NCBI RefSeq assembly: GCF_000186885.1
Contig: NC_014972.1
Location: forward strand, 3,720,001-3,752,000
Origin: Desulfobulbus propionicus DSM 2032
GTDB lineage: Bacteria; Desulfobacterota; Desulfobulbia; Desulfobulbales; Desulfobulbaceae
Reading direction: 5' to 3'
DNA length: 32,000 nt
The notes under the pieces were generated by a model. The model was not told where the DNA came from. It ran no database searches and worked only from the letters and a program-made list of their open reading frames with translations. This document shows positions 23,798 through 32,000 of this stretch, piece by piece; the stretch's first letter is position 1; each line of letters begins with the position of its first letter. The translations under genes were made by a program, and so were the position numbers.

Positions 23798-25165
23798 ATG
23801 GCCACCCCGAAAAAAGACACCCTGCTCTTCGTCTGCGGCCAGTGCGGTTTTGAAAGCCGCAAATGGCTGGGACGCTGCCCCGACTGCGGCGCCTGGGACA
23901 GCCTGGGCGAACAGCAAAAACCGCTCGTCCTCCGCCCCGGCCGCAAGGCGGCGACAGCCCAGCCGCTGGCGGCTGCCGGGGAGGAAGAGACCGCCCGCCT
24001 GGTGACCAGCATCGGTGAGATGGATCGGGTGCTCGGCGGCGGCATCGTGCCCGGCTCCCTGGTGCTGATCGGCGGCGATCCGGGCATCGGCAAGTCGACC
24101 CTGATCCTGCAGCTGCTCTCGTCGCTGGCGGCCAAGGGGCTCAAGGTGCTCTACGTCACCGGCGAGGAATCGGTGCGCCAGATCCGCATGCGGGCCAACC
24201 GCCTCAACATCGAGGATCCGGCGATTTCCGTGTCCACCGAGAACTGCGTCGAGGCCATTGTCGATCTGGCCGGGACCATGCAACCGGCCCTGCTGGCGGT
24301 GGATTCGATCCAGACGGTGTATAGCGAGGAGGTCGGGTCGGCGCCCGGCTCGGTCACCCAGGTGCGCGAGGCCACGGCCAGGCTGCTGGCCCTGGCCAAA
24401 TCGAGCCATCTGCCGATTCTGCTGGTCGGCCACGTGACCAAGGACGGGGCCATCGCCGGTCCGCGGGTACTGGAGCATATGGTCGATACGGTGCTCTATT
24501 TCGAAGGGGATCGCGGCCAGGTGTTCCGTATTCTACGGACGGTGAAGAACCGGTTCGGCTCGACCAACGAGATCGGGGTGTTCGAGATGCAGGAGAGCGG
24601 CTTGGTCGGGGTGGACAACCCCTCGGCCCTGTTCCTCGCCGAGCGGCCGGTCAATGTGCCGGGGTCGGTGGTGTTGCCCAGCGTCGAGGGCACGCGGCCA
24701 ATCCTGGTCGAGGTCCAGGCCCTGGTCAGTCGCTCCAGTCTGGGCACGGCCCGGCGTACCGCCATCGGCGCCGATCCGCAGCGGCTGGCCCTGCTCACCG
24801 CCGTGCTGGAAAAAAAGCTCGGGGTGACGCTGTTTGATCACGACATCTTTCTCAACATCGCCGGCGGCATCCGCATCATCGAGCCGGCCCTGGACCTGGG
24901 GGTGGTGGCGGCCCTGCTGTCCAGTTTTCTTGAGAAACCGATCGATCCCGGGACCGTGGTCTGCGGCGAGGTCGGCCTGGCCGGCGAGGTCCGGGCCGTG
25001 GGCCAGATGGAGATGCGGCTGCGCGAGGCCGGCCGGCTTGGCTTCAAGACCTTTCTCATGCCGGAATCCTCGACGCGCCAACTGCAGTCCAAGGCCAGGG
25101 AAGGATTGCACCTCCTGCCGGTGCGGACGGTGGCGGAGTTGGCCGACAGCCTGTTTCGCGCCTGA
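23798..25165 (+). CDS. radA: DNA repair protein RadA/Sms
   Basis: N-terminal zinc finger CGQCGFESRKWLGRCPDCGAW, Walker A GDPGIGKST, the KNRFG motif and a Lon-like C-domain. Confidence 0.95.
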   Translation: MATPKKDTLLFVCGQCGFESRKWLGRCPDCGAWDSLGEQQKPLVLRPGRKAATAQPLAAAGEEETARLVTSIGEMDRVLGGGIVPGSLVLIGGDPGIGKSTLILQLLSSLAAKGLKVLYVTGEESVRQIRMRANRLNIEDPAISVSTENCVEAIVDLAGTMQPALLAVDSIQTVYSEEVGSAPGSVTQVREATARLLALAKSSHLPILLVGHVTKDGAIAGPRVLEHMVDTVLYFEGDRGQVFRILRTVKNRFGSTNEIGVFEMQESGLVGVDNPSALFLAERPVNVPGSVVLPSVEGTRPILVEVQALVSRSSLGTARRTAIGADPQRLALLTAVLEKKLGVTLFDHDIFLNIAGGIRIIEPALDLGVVAALLSSFLEKPIDPGTVVCGEVGLAGEVRAVGQMEMRLREAGRLGFKTFLMPESSTRQLQSKAREGLHLLPVRTVAELADSLFRA

Positions 25166-25246
25166 TCGACCCTCGGCATCCGCCCCCCTGCTCCTCCCGA
25201 TGTTCCGCGAGGAGAGGTTCCCGCTGCAACCGCGCCAGCAGTCCGA

Positions 25247-28200
25247 TCACCGCCGGTAGATGCGCACCTCGATCCCGGGTGTGCTCTGCATCTGATTCCA
25301 GCGGCCATCGGCGATATGGACCTTGGCCCGGATCTCGTCACGGGAGCGGAACGGCCGTTCCCGAAGAATGGCATCGGCGAGTTCCTCACCGATGCCGGAA
25401 AGGCCGATCAGTTCGGCGCGGGACATCTCGTTGAGATACACCACCCGTTTGGGGATGGCCCGGGTGGCGTAATGGTCGAGCTGGGTATCGATTTCATTGT
25501 CCACCGTATGCCGTGCCACGCTGGAACCGGCGGCCCCCGAGGACAGCACCTCGTGGGCCGCGCAGTCAAGGGCGACCGGAATGGCCTGCTCGCCTTCGAT
25601 GATGTCGGCCTTGTCCTCGGCATCGGGATTGCCCAGGGCACGCAGGTAGGTGATGTCCGCCTGCCGCGACGGCTGCCCGTAACGGGCCGTGACCACAAAA
25701 TTGACGGTTTTCAGGTTGCGCGCCTGGGCCTGGGCCGCTGTCGGCGTACTGTAGGCCCCCTCGGTGCCGTTCACCGCCAATTTGACGAATTTTTCGAACC
25801 GGTTTTTATGGTCGCTGTTGGCGGCCTGGGTCAGCGGAGTAAGGTTGTCCCAGGTGTTGCCCGGACCGCCGAGATTGTCGTTGAGCAGATGCCCCTTGAT
25901 GTAGTAGACCCCTTCCCCCTGCTTGCGTTTGCTGATCTTGCCCCACAGGGGATTGCCCATGTCGCCGGAAGAGGGGGAACTGCCATTGGCATGGATCGGG
26001 GTCAGACGCATGACGCTGGCCGAGCCGCCGAAGCCGTTCACTCTGCCGCCGTACACCGGTGGAGTGGAAGCGGTGATATCGACCGGCATGAACCGTGCCG
26101 TGGCATCGGCAAGACGGGCCAGCAGACCGTCAATGATGTCGGCGTGGTTGGTGGTGGCGGCCGGACCTCCTCCGGGTCCCGGGGTGGGGTTGTCGGTGCT
26201 GGCGGTGACGATGGCGGCATCCAATTCGGTGGCGACCTGGACAGCCTGCTGCTTGTCACCCTGCTTGTCCGGCGGCACCTCGACCGTGCGAAGGAAATCC
26301 TGATACGGTGTCGGCGCGGAAGCCATCATCACCCTGGCAGAGCGGCCGCTGCCCTGAATATAGAGGCTGTGCCGTCCGCCGCCCGCCTGAAACTCGCGTC
26401 GTGCCCGCCACCAGTCCCGGAGACGGGCCACGCCCCGCCGAACCGCCGCCGTGCCCCGCCGCACCATGGCGATCACCGCCCGCCCCAACCGCAGGGCCCG
26501 GTCGATCAGCCAGTCGACCGCTCCGGTCACCCGCTCCCTGAGCCCACCGAGAATCTCCCGCAGCCGCTGCGACAGTCGGCCCAGACCGGCCTGGTTGGCG
26601 AGAAAACCGATGGCGATCGGCAGGGCGCTTGCCAGGGCGCTCTCGACAAAACCGGCCGCCTCGCCGATGGCGCCCCGGGCGATGCCGCCGATGCCGTCCA
26701 GCACCCGGGAGACGATCTCCAGCATCTGCCGCAGGTACTGCATGAACGACTCGATGGCCCGATAGATGGCGATCAGGGTATTGATCACCGGCATGATGCC
26801 GGTGACGTCGAGCAGGGAGAGCAGCCAGCGACTGGCCCAGCCGATCACCCGCTCGGTGATGAAGCCGGTCACGCCCTGCACGACCGTGTCCCACAGGTTG
26901 GACAACCGCTCGCTCACCTCCCGCCACAGCCCGGCCGGGCCGTCATTGATCAGGGTGGCGACAAACGACCACACCCCGGTGGCGATCTCCAGCATCGAGC
27001 GCAGCCGGGCAACGATGGCCGGATCGATGCGCCGTTCCAGGCGGGCAAAGATGGTGTCCCGGGTCAAACCAAGGACATCGAGGACAAAGCCCAGGACCGA
27101 GCGCAGGGAAAAGTCGGCCGGCGGGTTGATGCCCGCCTCGCGCACGGTGGCGAACAGCCAGTTGGTGAAGCCGGCCAGCAGATGGGTGCCGATATTGCCG
27201 AAGAAGCGGGTGAACCCGGCCCCCATGGCGCGCAGCAGGTTGGCGAGAAACCCGAGCGGATCGGTGAGGATGGCGCCAATGGCGCCGGCGGCCTTAGCCA
27301 AAATCTGCACCACCAGTTGCGCCGGCACATTGAAAATGCGCAGCACCGCCTGGAAAAAGGCCCAGGCCGCAGCGGCGAGGTCACCGTCGACAAAGATGCG
27401 GCGCAGGATGCCCAGCGCGGTCTGCTGCACCCGGGGCCAGAGCTCGGGGTCGGAGAAGAACTGACCGAACACCGGAATCCGGGCCAGGATCTGGTTCTTG
27501 ATGAAATTTTCCACCGGCTCGCGGATGCAGCGCGGCACCCGCTGCCAGATCGAATTGAGCACCAACAGCGGCAGCTGCAACAGGTCGCCAAAGATGGTGA
27601 TCACCTTGCGCACCGTGTCCAGCACCAGTTCCAGAAAGGGGGTGAGCGCATCGAAGCCCTGCACCAGCCAGGTGAACAGCACCGCCACCTTGTCGCGCGC
27701 CCAGGCGAGCAGGCTGGTGATTCCCTCTTCCAGCCAGGTGAAGGCCCCGGCCAGCCAGGACAGCAAATCGCTGGCCCGCAAGCGCCCGATTAGACCACTG
27801 ACCAAGGCGCCGACCCCGGCGATCCGTTCGCCCAGCCACTGGCCGGCGCCGACAATGATCCGCCGCACCGTGGCGATGATGTTCTGCACCGACGGCAGCA
27901 CCGAGGCCAGGGTGTCGCGTGCCGCCGGTACCCCGTCGCCGCCGTCCATGCCCGAGGCGGCGGTGTCCAGTTCGCCTGAAAGCTGCTGGGCTTGCTCGCC
28001 CATCTCGCGGACAAAGGCGGGTGGAATCAGTTCGGCCACCCGTCCGGCAAACTCAGCCACCGGCTGCCACACCGGCCGCGTTTGCGTTTTGACCCAATCC
28101 CAGGCCTCGCCCGCCTTGCGGCTGATCCAGCCGAGCACCCCGCCCTGGCTGCCGGTGCTGTCCTCACCCTCGGAGGAGCCGAACAGCAGGTCCTTGAACC

Positions 28201-29371
28201 AGTTCCATACCCGCGCGGCTGCCTCGCGCACCGGCCGGATCCATTCCCAGAAACGGCGACCCAGATCCTGAATCCCTTCCCAGACCGCGCCGCCAAATTC
28301 GCGCAGCCACTGCACCGCCGGGGCACCGAAGTTGGCCCACAGGTCGCGGAAGAAATCCCCCACCGGCTGGAGGAACTCGGTCAACTTGTTCCAGGCCACG
28401 CCGGCGGTCTCGACCACAAAGGTCTTCATGTCGTTGATGGCGGCCATCAATGGCTCGCACCGGCCCGAGGCCAGGCCGCTGGCGATGGCGGCGGCGCGCT
28501 CCACCAGGCCGGCGAAGAAATCGATCAGCTGGCGCGGCCCGTCAAAGGGCACCAGGGCCCGCAGGGTGCCGATGAACCCGTCCCAGGCCCGGGCCACCTG
28601 GCGGCCGAGCCAGGTGAGGATGCCCTCGTCGACGATGGCGCGCACGGTGCGGGCAAATTCGGGGGAAATGGTTTCCAAGAGCCGCCAGCCGAACTCGCGG
28701 ATCTTGTCCACCGCCCAATCGGCAATGTCGCCCAGGGTCTCGACCGCGCCATGGTAGAGATCGCTCCAGAAGCCGCGCCGCACCGGCTGCTGTTCGACAC
28801 TGCTGGTCTCGCCGCGTTGCTGGGCCACATGGGCCAGTTCGTGGGCAAGGAGAAAACGGCCGGCAGCGGTTTCGGGTTGATAGTATCCCCGGTTGAAGGC
28901 GATATGGTCGCCGATGGTGAAGGCTTGAGCGTACAGGGTTTCGTTGAGCCTGATGGCGCGCGGATCGGTATGCAGGCGGATCGCGCCCAGATCCATGCCG
29001 AAACGGGCCTCCATGTCGGTGCGCAACGGCGGCGGCAGGGGATCGCCGCCACTTTGCAGGGCCGTGATCTCGCGCTCGATGGATTCGGGCAGGGATTGTT
29101 CTTCTTCGGGAGGATGATGCACCCCCTCGTGATCCCCCGAGGGTGAGAGGGCGCACCGGATCGCCGCACGGTTGACGGAGGCGGTTGCAGTCCCACTGGC
29201 CTCCCCGGCCGCCGCCATCTTCCGGCCTAGGGCTTTGGCGGCAATGCGGTCGGCCTGCTGCTCGGCCTCGTCATGCGCGGCGCCCAGCTTGAGTTTGGGC
29301 CGCACGCCGGCGGGCACACGGACCGGCGGCCTATGGGCCGGCTGTTTCTGGACGAGCGCGGCGGTCAGCAT
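25247..29371 (-). CDS. 1374-aa multidomain DUF4157 (HExxH) protein with an HNH/EndoVII-like motif and a ComEA-like HhH tail; putative toxin/effector
   Basis: DUF4157 signature at aa ~108-186: PLPPPLRTDMEARFGMDLGAIRLHTD...AFTIGDHIAFNRGYY...GRFLLAHELAHVAQQ (HELAH at nt 28829-28843). YYIKGHLLNDNLGGPGNTWDNLTPLTQAANSDH at nt 25808-25894. LNEMSRAELIGLSGIGEELADAILRERPF at nt 25352-25435. The ATG lies 17 nt after the upstream stop, with a GAGGGGG RBS. Confidence 0.8.
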   Translation of the reverse strand: MLTAALVQKQPAHRPPVRVPAGVRPKLKLGAAHDEAEQQADRIAAKALGRKMAAAGEASGTATASVNRAAIRCALSPSGDHEGVHHPPEEEQSLPESIEREITALQSGGDPLPPPLRTDMEARFGMDLGAIRLHTDPRAIRLNETLYAQAFTIGDHIAFNRGYYQPETAAGRFLLAHELAHVAQQRGETSSVEQQPVRRGFWSDLYHGAVETLGDIADWAVDKIREFGWRLLETISPEFARTVRAIVDEGILTWLGRQVARAWDGFIGTLRALVPFDGPRQLIDFFAGLVERAAAIASGLASGRCEPLMAAINDMKTFVVETAGVAWNKLTEFLQPVGDFFRDLWANFGAPAVQWLREFGGAVWEGIQDLGRRFWEWIRPVREAAARVWNWFKDLLFGSSEGEDSTGSQGGVLGWISRKAGEAWDWVKTQTRPVWQPVAEFAGRVAELIPPAFVREMGEQAQQLSGELDTAASGMDGGDGVPAARDTLASVLPSVQNIIATVRRIIVGAGQWLGERIAGVGALVSGLIGRLRASDLLSWLAGAFTWLEEGITSLLAWARDKVAVLFTWLVQGFDALTPFLELVLDTVRKVITIFGDLLQLPLLVLNSIWQRVPRCIREPVENFIKNQILARIPVFGQFFSDPELWPRVQQTALGILRRIFVDGDLAAAAWAFFQAVLRIFNVPAQLVVQILAKAAGAIGAILTDPLGFLANLLRAMGAGFTRFFGNIGTHLLAGFTNWLFATVREAGINPPADFSLRSVLGFVLDVLGLTRDTIFARLERRIDPAIVARLRSMLEIATGVWSFVATLINDGPAGLWREVSERLSNLWDTVVQGVTGFITERVIGWASRWLLSLLDVTGIMPVINTLIAIYRAIESFMQYLRQMLEIVSRVLDGIGGIARGAIGEAAGFVESALASALPIAIGFLANQAGLGRLSQRLREILGGLRERVTGAVDWLIDRALRLGRAVIAMVRRGTAAVRRGVARLRDWWRARREFQAGGGRHSLYIQGSGRSARVMMASAPTPYQDFLRTVEVPPDKQGDKQQAVQVATELDAAIVTASTDNPTPGPGGGPAATTNHADIIDGLLARLADATARFMPVDITASTPPVYGGRVNGFGGSASVMRLTPIHANGSSPSSGDMGNPLWGKISKRKQGEGVYYIKGHLLNDNLGGPGNTWDNLTPLTQAANSDHKNRFEKFVKLAVNGTEGAYSTPTAAQAQARNLKTVNFVVTARYGQPSRQADITYLRALGNPDAEDKADIIEGEQAIPVALDCAAHEVLSSGAAGSSVARHTVDNEIDTQLDHYATRAIPKRVVYLNEMSRAELIGLSGIGEELADAILRERPFRSRDEIRAKVHIADGRWNQMQSTPGIEVRIYRR

Positions 29372-29388
29372 GGCGCCCGATCACCCCC

Positions 29389-30555
29389 TCAGGTCCGATA
29401 ACCGAAAAAGTAGTACAGCAGAACGCCGCACCAGGCGCGGGTAAACTCGGTTTTGCCGTTGTCGTTCCAGAAATTGGCCATGATATCGGTTTCATAACCC
29501 GGTAGATCGATACTGCCGAGCGAGGGCACGTCGATATACTTGTCGTCCAGCCCCATCATGTGCCCCACTTCGTGGGCAACCACCAGCGGGGCGGCATCCG
29601 CGGCCCAGCGGCCCGTGCTCCAAGGATCGCGTCCCCAGCCGGAATATTGGACAACAGAACGAAATCCATTCTGTTCGACAAAGACCGCATTGGATTCAGG
29701 CACCATGGCCTGCATGAGTCGGCTGTCGGCAAAAAGCGGATAGGCCTTGGCCGTGACGTGGATCTTGGCGTCGATGGTCATCCCTTTGAGTTTCAGCTGC
29801 CGGTTCCACTGCTTTTCGATATCGCTCGCCCATTTCGAAGCCAGGGTGGCACTGGATCGGGAACCATACAGGCCGAGACTGAAATACAGGTCAATCCCGC
29901 TTTTTTTCACGGTGATCCGATCGATCTTCCGTTTGAGCTCCTCCCGTCCCTGTTCCTGCTGCACCACATGCGCCAGTTCATGCGCCAGCAACCGCCGCCC
30001 TTCCTGGGAATGGGGACGGTATTCCCCCGCGCCGAAATAGACCTCGCCGCCGGTGGTGAAGGCCCGGGCCGAAAGACCGGCCGCCAACCGCGCCGCCGCG
30101 TCATCGGTATGGACGCGTACCCGGCTCAGGTCGGTACCGAGTCGAGGTTCGAAAAAGGCCCGTTCGCGGCCGGGCAGCGGATGACCGCCACCGCGACCAA
30201 GCGCGAGGGGCTGGCCATCGGCAGAGGTGGCCGTTGTTCCCGGCACGGCCTTGCGGCGCACCTCTTCCTCCTGGTCGTTTTCCGCCCCGGGCCGCTGCCG
30301 CTCTTCCTCGTCGATCGGCACCGTGTCCGCCGCCTTGCGTTGGATCGGTCCATCGTGCATGGCCAGCACCCGGTCGGCAACGCTATCGGCCTCGTGCTCC
30401 AGGTGGTCATCGGTGGAACCGATGCGCAACTTGGTCTGCACCGGACTCTCGAGGGCCTCGCGCAGACTGGTGCGGTTGACCTCGATTCGGGTCGGCCGGA
30501 TAACCGCCAGACGGCGGGCTCGGTGCTGCCTGCGGATATGCTGGAAGGATTTCAT
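29389..30555 (-). CDS. 388-aa DUF4157 protein with a second, metzincin-like zinc-peptidase domain; putative toxin/effector
   Basis: DUF4157 signature: HPLPGRERAFFEPRLGTDLSRVRVHTD...AFTTGGEVYFGAGEY...GRRLLAHELAHVVQQ (HELAH at nt 29968-29982). C-terminal VVAHEVGHMMGLDD (nt 29542-29574), then TDIMA 25 aa later. AGAGGAGG RBS. Confidence 0.8.
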   Translation of the reverse strand: MKSFQHIRRQHRARRLAVIRPTRIEVNRTSLREALESPVQTKLRIGSTDDHLEHEADSVADRVLAMHDGPIQRKAADTVPIDEEERQRPGAENDQEEEVRRKAVPGTTATSADGQPLALGRGGGHPLPGRERAFFEPRLGTDLSRVRVHTDDAAARLAAGLSARAFTTGGEVYFGAGEYRPHSQEGRRLLAHELAHVVQQEQGREELKRKIDRITVKKSGIDLYFSLGLYGSRSSATLASKWASDIEKQWNRQLKLKGMTIDAKIHVTAKAYPLFADSRLMQAMVPESNAVFVEQNGFRSVVQYSGWGRDPWSTGRWAADAAPLVVAHEVGHMMGLDDKYIDVPSLGSIDLPGYETDIMANFWNDNGKTEFTRAWCGVLLYYFFGYRT

Positions 30556-30591
30556 GGCGACCTCCTCTTTATCCTAATGAATCGTGCACGG

Positions 30592-32000
30592 TCAAAACGG
30601 TAGCGGCACCAGCTCGATCAGCACGTTGCCGGTCGAGGCCAACCGATTATGTCTCACCGTGCTGGCAAGCACATCATTGCTGGTGTAATTCTCAAGCAGA
30701 TTGCCCGTGAAGGTGGCCCGGTCGCCGATGACCGATCCCATCCAGTCGGCATCCAAGGCGGCGCGAAACCAGGTATTGCCCTGACCGATAAAGACGGCCG
30801 CCACCACCGTGGTGCCATACCCGCTAAAGCTGTTGCCGGTCAGCATCAGCCGGGCGTAACCGTTCACCCGCTGGTTGAGCACCCGGTTGGTGCCCACCGA
30901 GCCTGGCGGCAGATTGGCCTTGATCGCCGTGATCCGGTTGTGGTCGATGTGCAGGTCCTCGCCGCCGCTGAGGACCGCGTTGCCCTCCAGGGAGAAGTTG
31001 ACCACCCCCGCGTCGGGGTTGCGGTAGCCGGACACGCCGTTGGCGAGCAGCAGCCAGCCGTCGATCTCGCTCCCGGCCAGCACGCCGCCAACCTTGGCGC
31101 TTTCCAGGCGCAGGGCATAGTCGGGCTCGTAGCTGATCCAGTTGGCGACCAGATCCTCAATGGCCGCCACCGCCTCGTTGACGGTGATGCTATCGGCGGC
31201 CAGGACCTCGGACATGGTGGCGGTCGTCGGCTTGGGCGCCCGCATGGCTACCGCCTTGGGTGAGGCCACCTGCTCGAGCTTGGTCCGCCAGGTGGTGCGG
31301 ATATCCTTGGGCAGGACGATGATCTGCTTCGCTACCTTGACCAGGGCCTCGTCAAAGGCGACCTTGTTGTCCAGCAGTTCCTCCTTGCTCAGACCAAGCA
31401 GGGCCTCGCTGATGACGTTGTTGCCCACCACCTCGACCCCGACCCACTCATTCCCACTTGACGAGACAACCTTCCGCTGAGCATAGAGCTGATTATTTTG
31501 CCAATCGAGACGGCAGACCGTGTTGCCCCGACCGCCGAGACTGATCATCGCCGGGCCGTTCGCCGTGGTGCTGGTGCGGGCGATACGGCAACCGGTGGTG
31601 CGGGAGAGGGCGGCCCGGATCGCCAACTGCCCGGCACGTTTGGCGAAGTCGAGCGTCAGGTTCTCCAGGATCACCTCATCGGCCTCGATACGCCAGGTGT
31701 CGCCGCCAAACAGAATGGTCACCGATTCAGGTCCCTGACCGCTGATCCGCAGGCTGCGCTTATCGGTGATCGCCGGCAGATCGCCCAACGCGTAGACGCC
31801 GCCCCGAAGGCAGAGCCACAGATCACTGGCGGTGGATTGGGCAAATTCCTCCAGCAGCACCGCCAGATGACCGGGGGAGGTCACCATGACCGCGCAGCCG
31901 CCGGCCGCCTTGTCGCACAACACCTTGAGCGCATCCTGGACCGTGACCACCGATTCGGGCAGCAGATCGCTGCACAGGCCGATGTCGCCCTTGTCGAGCG
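30592..32000 (-). CDS. Hypothetical protein with parallel-beta-helix-like GN repeats; 5' end probably beyond the window
   Basis: The track starts at a GTG (31950), but the frame stays open to nt 31998 (LDKGDIGLCSDLLPES precedes it). A recurrent [LF/V]xGNx[VLF] motif appears at least 6 times: GRGNTVC, VVGNNVI, LEGNAVL, LTGNSFS, FTGNLLE and STGNVLI. It lies 36 nt upstream of the DUF4157 gene on the same strand. Confidence 0.6.
   Translation of the reverse strand, partial: LDKGDIGLCSDLLPESVVTVQDALKVLCDKAAGGCAVMVTSPGHLAVLLEEFAQSTASDLWLCLRGGVYALGDLPAITDKRSLRISGQGPESVTILFGGDTWRIEADEVILENLTLDFAKRAGQLAIRAALSRTTGCRIARTSTTANGPAMISLGGRGNTVCRLDWQNNQLYAQRKVVSSSGNEWVGVEVVGNNVISEALLGLSKEELLDNKVAFDEALVKVAKQIIVLPKDIRTTWRTKLEQVASPKAVAMRAPKPTTATMSEVLAADSITVNEAVAAIEDLVANWISYEPDYALRLESAKVGGVLAGSEIDGWLLLANGVSGYRNPDAGVVNFSLEGNAVLSGGEDLHIDHNRITAIKANLPPGSVGTNRVLNQRVNGYARLMLTGNSFSGYGTTVVAAVFIGQGNTWFRAALDADWMGSVIGDRATFTGNLLENYTSNDVLASTVRHNRLASTGNVLIELVPLPF

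Follow-up and report, generated by a model that had tools for sequence, protein, structure and literature searches.

The three genes that end the analyzed window (a stretch of 32,000 nt from Desulfobulbus propionicus DSM 2032) lie on the same strand and encode, in the order of transcription, a tail fibre and two putative cargo proteins, a small and a large one (Table 1). Re-reading of the sequence gave the same frames, the same two gaps, and the same two ribosome-binding sites as the initial annotation had listed. The fibre frame, ending at 30592, is free of stop codons to nt 31998 and is therefore cut by the window edge; it had been described as still open at nt 32000, and the full gene is found in contig L001, which is 100% identical to window positions 24065–32000 (7936 nt) and extends the window upstream. 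No sigma-70-like promoter was found across positions 24900–32000. No immunity-like ORF fits the 81-nt gap between the large cargo gene and radA, and no immunity gene was found adjoining either putative toxin. The radA junction recurs in two other Desulfobulbus genomes (three in all). The rest of the window is housekeeping, as first noted: mnmA, recA, cinA, aconitase, PEPCK, pyruvate kinase, and radA.

Table 1. Features at the distal end of the window (window coordinates).
Feature	Position	Strand	Details	Source
radA	23798..25165	+	convergent with the predicted eCIS operon; chromosomal end of the locus	
Large cargo gene (Despr_3259)	25247..29371	-	1374 aa	ORF listing
Small/large-cargo gap	29372..29388	-	17 nt; RBS GAGGGGG before ATG	sequence reading
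Small cargo gene (Despr_3260)	29389..30555	-	388 aa	ORF listing
Fibre/small-cargo gap	30556..30591	-	36 nt; RBS AGAGGAGG before ATG	sequence reading
Tail fibre gene (Despr_3261), 3' part	30592..32000	-	C-terminal 468 codons in the window	

Directly upstream of the fibre gene, L001 encodes Tail_P2_I (Pfam match, E 4e-8), Baseplate_J (989 aa, E 1.6e-8), a second gp6-like protein, gp25 (GPW_gp25, E 2.3e-13), and a Phage_base_V spike; L001 ends within the spike, whose full match (E 2.7e-22) is seen in L009, a strain with 99% identical proteins. L009 also encodes the gpD-like hub, gpX, a CIS_tube protein, and an AAA+ ATPase of the Cis15 type (AAA, E 2e-24). Relatives with equal gene order and the radA neighbour (L010 and L091) further add a Pvc16_N (DUF4255) cap (E 6.6e-16 in L010), the tube (Phage_T4_gp19), and the sheath (Phage_sheath_1/1C); sheath, tube, and cap are seen in these relatives (67–86% identity), not in DSM 2032 DNA. 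The composite order is sheath, tube, Pvc16_N cap, AAA+ ATPase, tube initiator, gpX, gpD-like hub, gpV spike, gp25, two gp6/J-like proteins, P2_I, fibre, small cargo, and large cargo. A low-complexity protein of 331–358 aa with a conserved C-terminus follows the tube and p263; a histidine kinase, an HDOD protein, and GroEL are encoded upstream of the sheath in L091 and L094.

An upstream search for such genes, suggested in the initial annotation, thus turned up the sheath, tube, baseplate, spike, AAA+ ATPase, and cap, and its reading of the three genes as the distal cargo end of an injection locus is supported by the baseplate and spike genes in L001, the ATPase in L009, and the cap, tube, and sheath in the relatives. 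[quoted passage not shown] The genes for the sheath, tube, and baseplate come from phages, as they also would in a defective prophage tail or in an R-type tailocin, which has no protein cargo and kills through depolarisation; however, such an origin is scarcely credible here, as the eCIS-specific Pvc16_N cap, Cis15-type AAA+ ATPase, DUF4157, and DUF6519 are all there, the radA-adjoining chromosomal site is kept in the three Desulfobulbus genomes, and no head genes are seen in ~4.7 kb upstream of the sheath in L091 and L094. Portal, terminase, and T6SS membrane-complex genes are likewise not found adjoining the locus (~4.7 kb upstream in the relatives; radA downstream).

The full fibre has 1042 aa (6836–9964 of L001), and its gene comes right after the Tail_P2_I gene. 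Residues 1–165, which lie outside the window, match PF20129 (DUF6519, E 8.7e-18); DUF6519 fibres are catalogued as eBAP5 (PMC12923769). The part of the protein within the window was initially called a beta-helix protein. It has no Pfam match for a beta-helix, but the AlphaFold2 model and the fold matches agree with the claim: the C-terminal half is beta-rich (pLDDT 80–95 over residues 611–1042, with residues 430–610 poorly modelled), and the best fold matches are pectate-lyase-type beta-helix lyases, epimerases, and phage tailspikes. By its N-terminal domain and modelled fold, the fibre is a DUF6519/eBAP5 baseplate anchor joined to a beta-helix as the putative receptor-binding half. Similarly, eBAP5 fibres have an N-terminal DUF6519 and, in many cases, a C-terminal beta-helix of the pectin-lyase-like fold (PMC12923769); unlike in that description, the modelled beta-helix of Despr_3261 is broken by a helical insertion of ~100 residues (757–858).

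Both cargos begin with a three-part module: a helix with the motif D..E.EAD..A, a disordered linker, and a zincin-like DUF4157 domain, which precedes the enzymatic domain, the genes being located at the 3' end of the eCIS operon. The N-termini of the two proteins are 36% identical (BLASTP, E 1e-20), and the helix motif is present in 68 of 84 other DUF4157 proteins and in 83 of 102 members of the large-cargo family. The early assignment to DUF4157 holds, since both complete proteins strongly match PF13699 (eCIS_core): residues 126–203 of the small cargo (E 3.7e-32, 110.8 bits) and 111–188 of the large cargo (E 3.1e-28, 98.2 bits), against a cut-off of 22. The HExxH motif of this domain is HELAH, at position 192 of the small and 177 of the large cargo; in the latter, H177, E178, and H181 are invariant across the family. 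Such invariance, and a maturation or chaperone role speculated upon in the literature, would suit DUF4157 proteins that act as processing or chaperone metallopeptidases of the machine and are not delivered as toxins. We consider this very unlikely: in AlgoCIS (Algoriphagus machipongonensis), it is the DUF4157 proteins Cgo1 and Cgo2 that occupy the tube lumen, from which they disappear upon contraction (PMC8894135); DUF4157 is dispensable for AlgoCIS loading, which requires the N-terminus and the AAA+ protein Alg15 (bioRxiv 10.64898/2026.05.27.728243); and both D. propionicus cargos bear separate C-termini predicted to be toxin-type enzymes, that of the small cargo being found also on RHS proteins.

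In the small cargo, the conserved helix motif (residues 39–65) lies in the disordered N-terminus; the AlphaFold2 model shows the latter as disordered save for a helix at 51–65, with pLDDT below 50 at residues 1–48 and 74–121. The C-terminal domain (~210–388) contains a second motif, HEVGHMMGLDD at 328, and a Met-turn (M359); H328, G331, H332, D338, and M359 are invariant in 34 relatives, of which 16 carry eCIS_core and two carry RHS repeats. Fold matches are to metzincins (probability 0.97–0.99), albeit with weak E-values (2e-3) and low whole-chain TM-scores. The motif, the five invariant residues, and the fold matches agree with the initial description of this protein as peptidase-like, and the C-terminus of the small cargo is, as modelled, a metzincin-like protease domain. 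Still, toxicity may not stem from the protease, because AlgoCIS Cgo1 is toxic independently of its HExxH motifs.

The large cargo has the conserved N-terminal motif at residues 23–49, followed by the disordered linker, DUF4157, and a Trp-rich, helical, tape-measure-like region (~200–1000) with four hydrophobic segments (19-mers with Kyte–Doolittle hydropathy of at least 1.6). It matches the PHROGs tape-measure families phrog_58, phrog_305, and phrog_1272 (E 2e-9 to 2.5e-8) and the tape measure of Bacillus phage B13 (tblastn, E 7e-5); these matches may be due in part to its helical, Ala/Gly/Leu-rich composition. Relatives are found in Proteobacteria, Desulfobacterota, Chloroflexota, Planctomycetota, and Bacteroidota; by itself, the middle domain (residues ~685–970) is present also in Actinomycetota and Cyanobacteria, with homologues in the actinobacterial CIS loci L028 and L034.

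Further toward the C-terminus, a putative His-Me-type nuclease region (~1140–1260) shows the pattern GH1161...N1164...N1176...N1185, where G1160, H1161, N1164, N1176, and N1185 are invariant among relatives, and a ComEA-like HhH tail follows at residues 1310–1358. The initial annotation called this protein nuclease-like, which stands insofar as PF13930 is detected in 15 of the 17 family members aligned (lowest E 1.2e-8), a Chloroflexus homologue scores 41.7 bits, above the cut-off, and the GH...N...N...N residues are invariant; on the large cargo itself, however, PF13930 scores 19.6–24 bits, below the Pfam cut-off of 27. A search for PDB sequence matches to the nuclease region gave none. The C-terminus of the large cargo is predicted to be a His-Me DNA/RNA nuclease with an HhH DNA-binding tail.

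Given the tape-measure matches, the 1374-aa protein might primarily be the eCIS tape measure, that is, a length ruler belonging to the structural core rather than an optional cargo, with the nuclease as an add-on. It is the sole protein of the locus to match tape-measure families and the largest ORF of the cluster (1374 aa vs. [quoted passage not shown] MS-G occupies the classical tape-measure position, flanked by the gene for the AAA+ ATPase and those for the tube initiator and hub (Tme-type position). Nevertheless, we regard this reading as unlikely. The 331–358-aa low-complexity protein occupies the P2-type tape-measure slot and could thus be the ruler; AlgoCIS has a separate identified tape measure, Alg14 (526 aa), beside its 1228-aa DUF4157 cargo; a 1374-aa ruler would imply an unusually long particle of ~315 nm (0.229 nm per residue); and the many invariant Trp, Pro, and Gly residues suggest a folded domain, not a simple ruler.

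A bolder proposal, likewise unlikely, is that the large cargo and its relatives across phyla are one bifunctional core part of this CIS clade, a single chain that sets the tail length, inserts into the membrane as a conduit, and is injected as a DNase. If true, the ruler of the machine would double as a weapon, the conserved middle domain would be a delivery module common to Tme, Sle1-type, and possibly Cgo2-type effectors, and the shift from the tape-measure slot in Chloroflexus to the operon end in Desulfobulbus would show that the gene position is free. The two cargos differ in their conservation: the large one is conserved over its length across the whole eCIS lineage, while the small one differs in its C-terminal domain from relative to relative, through exchange of the domain, which would befit a variable toxin. 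The rule for the lineage is then that the large nuclease protein is kept like a structural gene, and the small C-terminal domain is exchanged like a toxin.

The domain combinations were initially held to match nothing characterised; in fact, both have counterparts, Cgo1/Cgo2 of AlgoCIS (PMC8894135) and Tme (BN159_7576) of the Streptomyces davawensis CIS (PMC11126660). The small cargo copies the architecture of Cgo1 (disordered N-terminus, DUF4157, and a domain with a second HExxH), the first HExxH lying in DUF4157 and the second in the C-terminal domain, a putative metalloprotease, in both proteins. Both AlgoCIS and D. propionicus have adjacent genes for a small and a large cargo (Cgo1, 498 aa; Cgo2, 1228 aa; PMC8894135), with similarly disordered N-termini, DUF4157, and then differing C-terminal domains, and both loci encode a Cis15-type AAA+ ATPase. 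The two systems belong to different phyla and eCIS lineages, and the comparison of their cargos is one of architecture; Cgo2, unlike the large cargo, has no reported nuclease; and the gene order seems to differ, being large, small, and AAA+ in the Bacteroidota loci L019 and L022 (not AlgoCIS itself).

The large cargo, again compared by architecture, copies that of Tme. Tme is an endonuclease that binds the spike and the tube initiator, and its clade spans Actinobacteria, Chloroflexota, and Proteobacteria (PMC11126660). Both proteins have an N-terminal DUF4157, remote tape-measure homology, and central hydrophobic helices; Tme has a C-terminal His-Me type endonuclease (DRGH / H-N-N-like), to which the candidate nuclease of the large cargo would correspond; each is the largest ORF of its cluster, and both clusters contain two Afp11-like genes and tail fibres. 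The differences are in size (1374 aa vs. 2247 aa in Tme); in gene position (3'-terminal after the fibre vs. between the sheath/tube and baseplate genes); in the motif at the histidine (KGH in this strain vs. RGH); in the HhH tail, extra in the large cargo; and in the best match, PF13930 here, whereas Tme was compared with EndA. More generally, the cargos resemble eCIS-associated toxins (EATs; Geller et al. 2021, PMC8213781; Danov et al. 2024, PMC11297309), which have an N-terminal DUF4157 and a C-terminal toxin domain, a linker sometimes exceeding 1000 aa, nuclease and peptidase among the reported activities, and often no immunity gene.

Tme, the closest characterised analogue of the large protein, attacks the producer's own DNA (PMC11126660), and the D. 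propionicus locus shows kinship with the clade that carries Tme (55% identity to the Chloroflexus counterparts in the sheath C-terminus, 58% in the tube). Together with a predicted DNase and protease lacking an adjoining immunity gene, this would fit a system directed at the inside or surface of the producer itself, for autolysis, for the release of eDNA, or for developmental cell death as in Streptomyces CIS, and not a released particle that attacks other cells. We give this little credence: the conserved fibre, with its baseplate anchor and tailspike-like beta-helix, argues for external surface binding, and many experimentally toxic eCIS effectors likewise have no immunity genes (PMC8213781).

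For a particle acting on other cells, AlgoCIS, PROCIS, and S. davawensis Tme suggest by analogy a course of events. The AAA+ ATPase would assist in recognising the cargos by their disordered N-termini, and the cargos would be fed into the lumen of the tube, to lie behind the spike; the fibre would bind a surface polysaccharide of the target cell; sheath contraction would drive out the tube, spike, and cargo; the hydrophobic helices of the large cargo may engage the target membrane; and its nuclease would degrade nucleic acid, while the small cargo would work as a protease.

The fibre and two cargos are a real but fairly ordinary new example, the cargo types having already been studied elsewhere, and the current understanding of eCIS is unchanged by this locus. 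With it, a complete and apparently intact eCIS is on record for the type strain of a cultivable, strictly anaerobic sulfate reducer, and a Cgo1-like and a Tme-like cargo, the two designs with DUF4157 that are best characterised, stand together in one predicted operon. The conserved large and the exchanged small protein make two questions testable, in the setting of a proteobacterial-type system: whether Tme-like proteins serve as tape measures, and which part of the cargo is the loading signal. Sulfate reducers are a group in which no eCIS is known to have been studied before; in the accessible part of the supplement of Geller et al. (2021; PMC8213781), D. elongatus is the only entry for the genus.

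The three minus-strand ORFs that the initial annotation placed at the end of the window hold on re-reading of the sequence, with the coordinates listed below, intergenic gaps of 36 and 17 nt, and the ribosome-binding sequences AGAGGAGG and GAGGGGG preceding the two start codons. An exact-sequence look-up assigns them to the locus tags in the table and RadA to ADW19385; the RefSeq names are "eCIS core domain-containing" and "DUF6519 domain-containing" proteins (eCIS, extracellular contractile injection system). The remainder of the window is, as annotated, housekeeping: mnmA, a MiaB-like enzyme, cinA, recA, aconitase, PEPCK, pyruvate kinase, and radA. Searches for tRNAs and Rfam families find nothing within the window, and there is no sigma-70-like promoter in 24900–32000 and no convincing terminator between radA and the operon (z = −1.0); we infer that the operon genes are co-transcribed. 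Many long ORFs lie opposite to real genes, e.g., at 25316–27793 (+), reaching up to 825 aa; such ORFs are expected at 64–68% G+C and are not genes.

Operon genes at the end of the window
Feature	Locus tag	Position	Strand	ORF
Large protein	Despr_3259	25247–29371	minus	1374 aa, complete
Small protein	Despr_3260	29389–30555	minus	388 aa, complete
Fibre (edge ORF)	Despr_3261	frame ends 30592	minus	still open at nt 31998

A public contig (L001), 100% identical to window positions 24065–32000 and extending 8.5 kb further, contains the full 1042-aa edge ORF followed, away from the window, by Tail_P2_I, a 989-aa Baseplate_J protein, a second gp6-like protein of 399 aa, gp25, and a Phage_base_V spike. 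Further genes come from L009, a strain whose proteins are 99% identical: a gpD-like hub, a Phage_tail_X protein, a CIS_tube protein, a 78-aa ORF, and a 448-aa WHD+AAA ATPase. An uncultured Desulfobulbus (L010), with identical gene order and a likewise convergent radA, contributes a Pvc16_N cap, a low-complexity protein of 331 aa, a zinc-ribbon/DUF6760 protein of 263 aa, a tube of the gp19 type, and the sheath; the operon's sheath, tube, and cap genes were read in such relatives. In two metagenomic relatives (L091, L094) the sheath gene comes first, preceded by a long gap and signalling genes or groEL, and no head genes are found in the roughly 4.7 kb upstream of it. The combined gene content of these contigs therefore defines an 18-gene eCIS operon, whose last three genes are those of the window. 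The sheath, tube, cap, AAA, and baseplate genes upstream in L001 and its relatives bear out the earlier placement at the cargo end of an injection locus, and the interpretation as a cargo module is supported. A prophage or tailocin was rejected in view of the gene content adjoining the locus; a T6SS was set aside on the components found, all of the phage-tail/eCIS type. The eCIS adjoins radA here, as it does in L010 and L011, two further genomes of Desulfobulbus, and this common junction suggests inheritance within the genus.

The 263-aa protein (L010, 1093–1884), encoded directly after the tube gene, carries two CxxC..CxxC-like zinc-ribbon motifs and a weak C-terminal match to DUF6760; its C-terminal 50 residues are kept as far afield as the CIS loci of actinobacteria and Chloroflexus. 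Judging by where it is encoded, it may be an assembly chaperone.

The edge ORF is an eCIS tail fibre. The full-length protein contains DUF6519 (E 8.7e-18, L001), also termed eBAP5, the N-terminal baseplate anchor of eCIS tail fibres, whose C-termini are often pectin-lyase beta-helices (PMC12923769). The whole protein was modelled with AlphaFold2 from 34 aligned homologues; pLDDT is 80–95 for residues 611–1042, essentially the in-window part, which shows short regular strands broken by a helical insertion. Of solved structures, this part best matches AlgE6 epimerase, RbmB lyase, NosD, polygalacturonase, and the HK620 tailspike, all with weak E-values; of viral models, pectate-lyase-superfamily and tailspike proteins (E ~5e-4, probability ≤0.99). 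Neither the Pfam beta-helix models nor a PDB sequence search yields a significant match for the fibre; the predicted fold nevertheless supports the beta-helix originally proposed for this ORF, here its C-terminal half.

Both complete proteins match DUF4157 (eCIS_core, PF13699), as had been claimed, far above the Pfam cut-off (E 3.1e-28 for the large, 3.7e-32 for the small protein). They have about 175 N-terminal residues in common (36% identity, E 1e-20), which run from a short motif, V.xKLxxG...D..E.EAD..A, through a linker of variable sequence to DUF4157 with HELAH. The short motif is present in 68/84 unrelated DUF4157 proteins and 83 of the 102 large-family members, at a median of ~150 residues before HExxH. 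In the small-protein model the N-terminus is disordered save for this motif, a confident helix (residues 51–65), while DUF4157 (122–203) and the C-terminal domain are well modelled. AlgoCIS cargo is described with this same architecture, a disordered N-terminus followed by DUF4157; there, loading into the tube lumen needs the disordered N-terminus and Alg15 (AAA+), and DUF4157 is dispensable (bioRxiv 10.64898/2026.05.27.728243; PMC8894135).

[quoted passage not shown] An exhaustive search of 1.84 billion representatives yields only 84 relatives of this domain; a query that joined the small protein to the fibre fragment brought up homologues of the fibre and matches to DUF4157 alone, and did not recover full-length relatives of the small protein. 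W317, H328, G331, H332, D338, Y340, and M359 are invariant in 34 relatives, 16 of which contain eCIS_core and two RHS repeats; by sequence, these residues form a metzincin signature, HExxHxxGxxD with a Met-turn. The Pfam peptidase models M6, M10, M12B, and M7 match weakly; the top fold-search matches, led by fragilysin-3 and ADAM17/TACE, are all metzincins (E 2e-3, probability 0.97–0.99), and a PDB sequence search gives no significant match. Cgo1 of AlgoCIS has the same design, with one HExxH in DUF4157 and another in the C-terminal domain. In close loci the N-terminal half is kept and the C-terminal domain replaced, for example in 505–579-aa proteins with unassigned domains or, in Chloroflexus, by DUF922, as expected of an exchangeable toxin. 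Its HExxHxxGxxD core also occurs in giant proteins of 2400–7300 aa (P0363, P0375, P0377, P0380), one of which, of 3719 aa, has 22 matching stretches. Given these and the two RHS-bearing relatives, its use as a putative warhead extends beyond eCIS.

The middle of the large protein (residues ~200–1000) is helical and Trp-rich; many of its Trp, Pro, and Gly residues are invariant, and four segments are strongly hydrophobic. PHROG searches give tape-measure families (best E 2e-9), and tblastn gives the protein annotated as the tape measure in Bacillus phage B13 (E 7e-5); the locus encodes no other protein that matches a tape-measure family. Aromatic-residue periodicity is a hallmark of some tape measures; the helical region has no clear period. 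Residues ~1140–1260 score 24 bits with PF13930 (Endonuclea_NS_2), just below the 27-bit cut-off; 15/17 relatives match over this region (best E 1.2e-8), and Chloroflexus (41.7 bits) and Planctomycetota homologues exceed the cut-off. In the motif YY[VI]xGHLLNxxLGGPGxxWxNLTPLxxxxN, G1160, H1161, N1164, N1176, and N1185 are invariant, as expected of a putative His-Me finger nuclease; PDB sequence searches with the whole-protein and nuclease-only profiles give no significant match. Beyond the nuclease region comes a ComEA-like HhH motif (HHH_3, E 1.3e-4 here, 1.2e-6 in L010), and this tail varies, being absent or replaced in many family members. An HExxH (HEGVH) at residue 81 (window 29131–29119), in the disordered N-terminus, was discarded, as it is not conserved in the family alignment, and is probably a chance occurrence.

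Full-length homologues of 1300–1540 aa form >100 clusters, in Desulfobulbus, many Beta- and Gammaproteobacteria, Verrucomicrobiales, and Fibrobacteria, and in each case they follow the fibre and small protein. Middle-domain homologues, whether or not they include the nuclease, are found in the CIS loci of Chloroflexota, Planctomycetota, Bacteroidota, Cyanobacteria, and Actinomycetota. The large protein is the sole tape-measure-like protein of the locus and is conserved like a structural gene, and its homologue fills the tape-measure slot in Chloroflexus; even so, it is unlikely to be the tail-length ruler as well, since a disordered 331–358-aa protein with a conserved C-terminus occupies the P2-type tape-measure slot after the tube and 263-aa genes, and AlgoCIS combines a separate ruler (Alg14, 0.229 nm per residue) with a large DUF4157 cargo. 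The 331–358-aa protein (L010, 1887–2882; L091, 7904–8977), encoded between the tube/263-aa genes and the cap, is Ser/Pro/Glu/Gln-rich and apparently disordered, ends in a conserved hydrophobic stretch, ..IGRIDVVVVS..NYLKRL, and matches no family; the actual tape measure of the lineage may be this protein.

As a cargo protein, the large protein matches the published Tme of S. davawensis in design. Tme, encoded by the largest ORF of its cluster, combines DUF4157 with remote homology to tape measures, predicted transmembrane helices, and an endonuclease at its C-terminus, binds the spike and tube initiator, and belongs to a clade spanning Actinobacteria, Chloroflexota, and Proteobacteria (PMC11126660). 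The two differ chiefly in gene position, as Tme and the homologue from Chloroflexus are encoded between the sheath/tube and hub genes, whereas the D. propionicus gene is last. In Chloroflexus sp. MS-G (L026, 7634–12922), a 1438-aa DUF4157-nuclease homologue and a small DUF4157-DUF922 protein lie between the AAA+ ATPase and tube-initiator/hub genes. Tape measures classically hold this slot, and the pair has thus moved together from lineage to lineage. In actinobacterial CIS loci (L028, 8273–11686 and 11951–12709; L034, 9776–14319), the middle domain (residues ~685–970) is found in a protein without DUF4157, adjoined by a separate small DUF4157 protein, a layout resembling the published Sle1/Sle2 pair of S. 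lividans.

To the observed gene content, domain architectures, and conservation patterns, a mechanism may be added by analogy with AlgoCIS, PROCIS, and Tme. Both cargo proteins would be loaded via their N-termini into the tube lumen, with help from the AAA+ ATPase; the fibre would bind a polysaccharide on the target; contraction would expel the cargo; and the nuclease and protease would act in the target, where the hydrophobic helices of the large protein might assist by inserting into the membrane. Neither cargo protein has an adjoining immunity gene, as radA lies 81 nt away. It would also allow a role directed at the producer, as with Tme, although a missing immunity gene is common for eCIS toxins (PMC8213781).

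The cargo designs, fibre class, and loading logic are already published. The literature search found no mention of the D. propionicus locus, which may be uncatalogued, having perhaps been missed by the eCIS catalogues (PMC8213781 and PMC12923769, supplements). Among the matches listed there for Desulfobulbus, the only entry is D. elongatus DSM 2908 (1/11 Desulfobulbus genomes), with an eBAP4-type locus.
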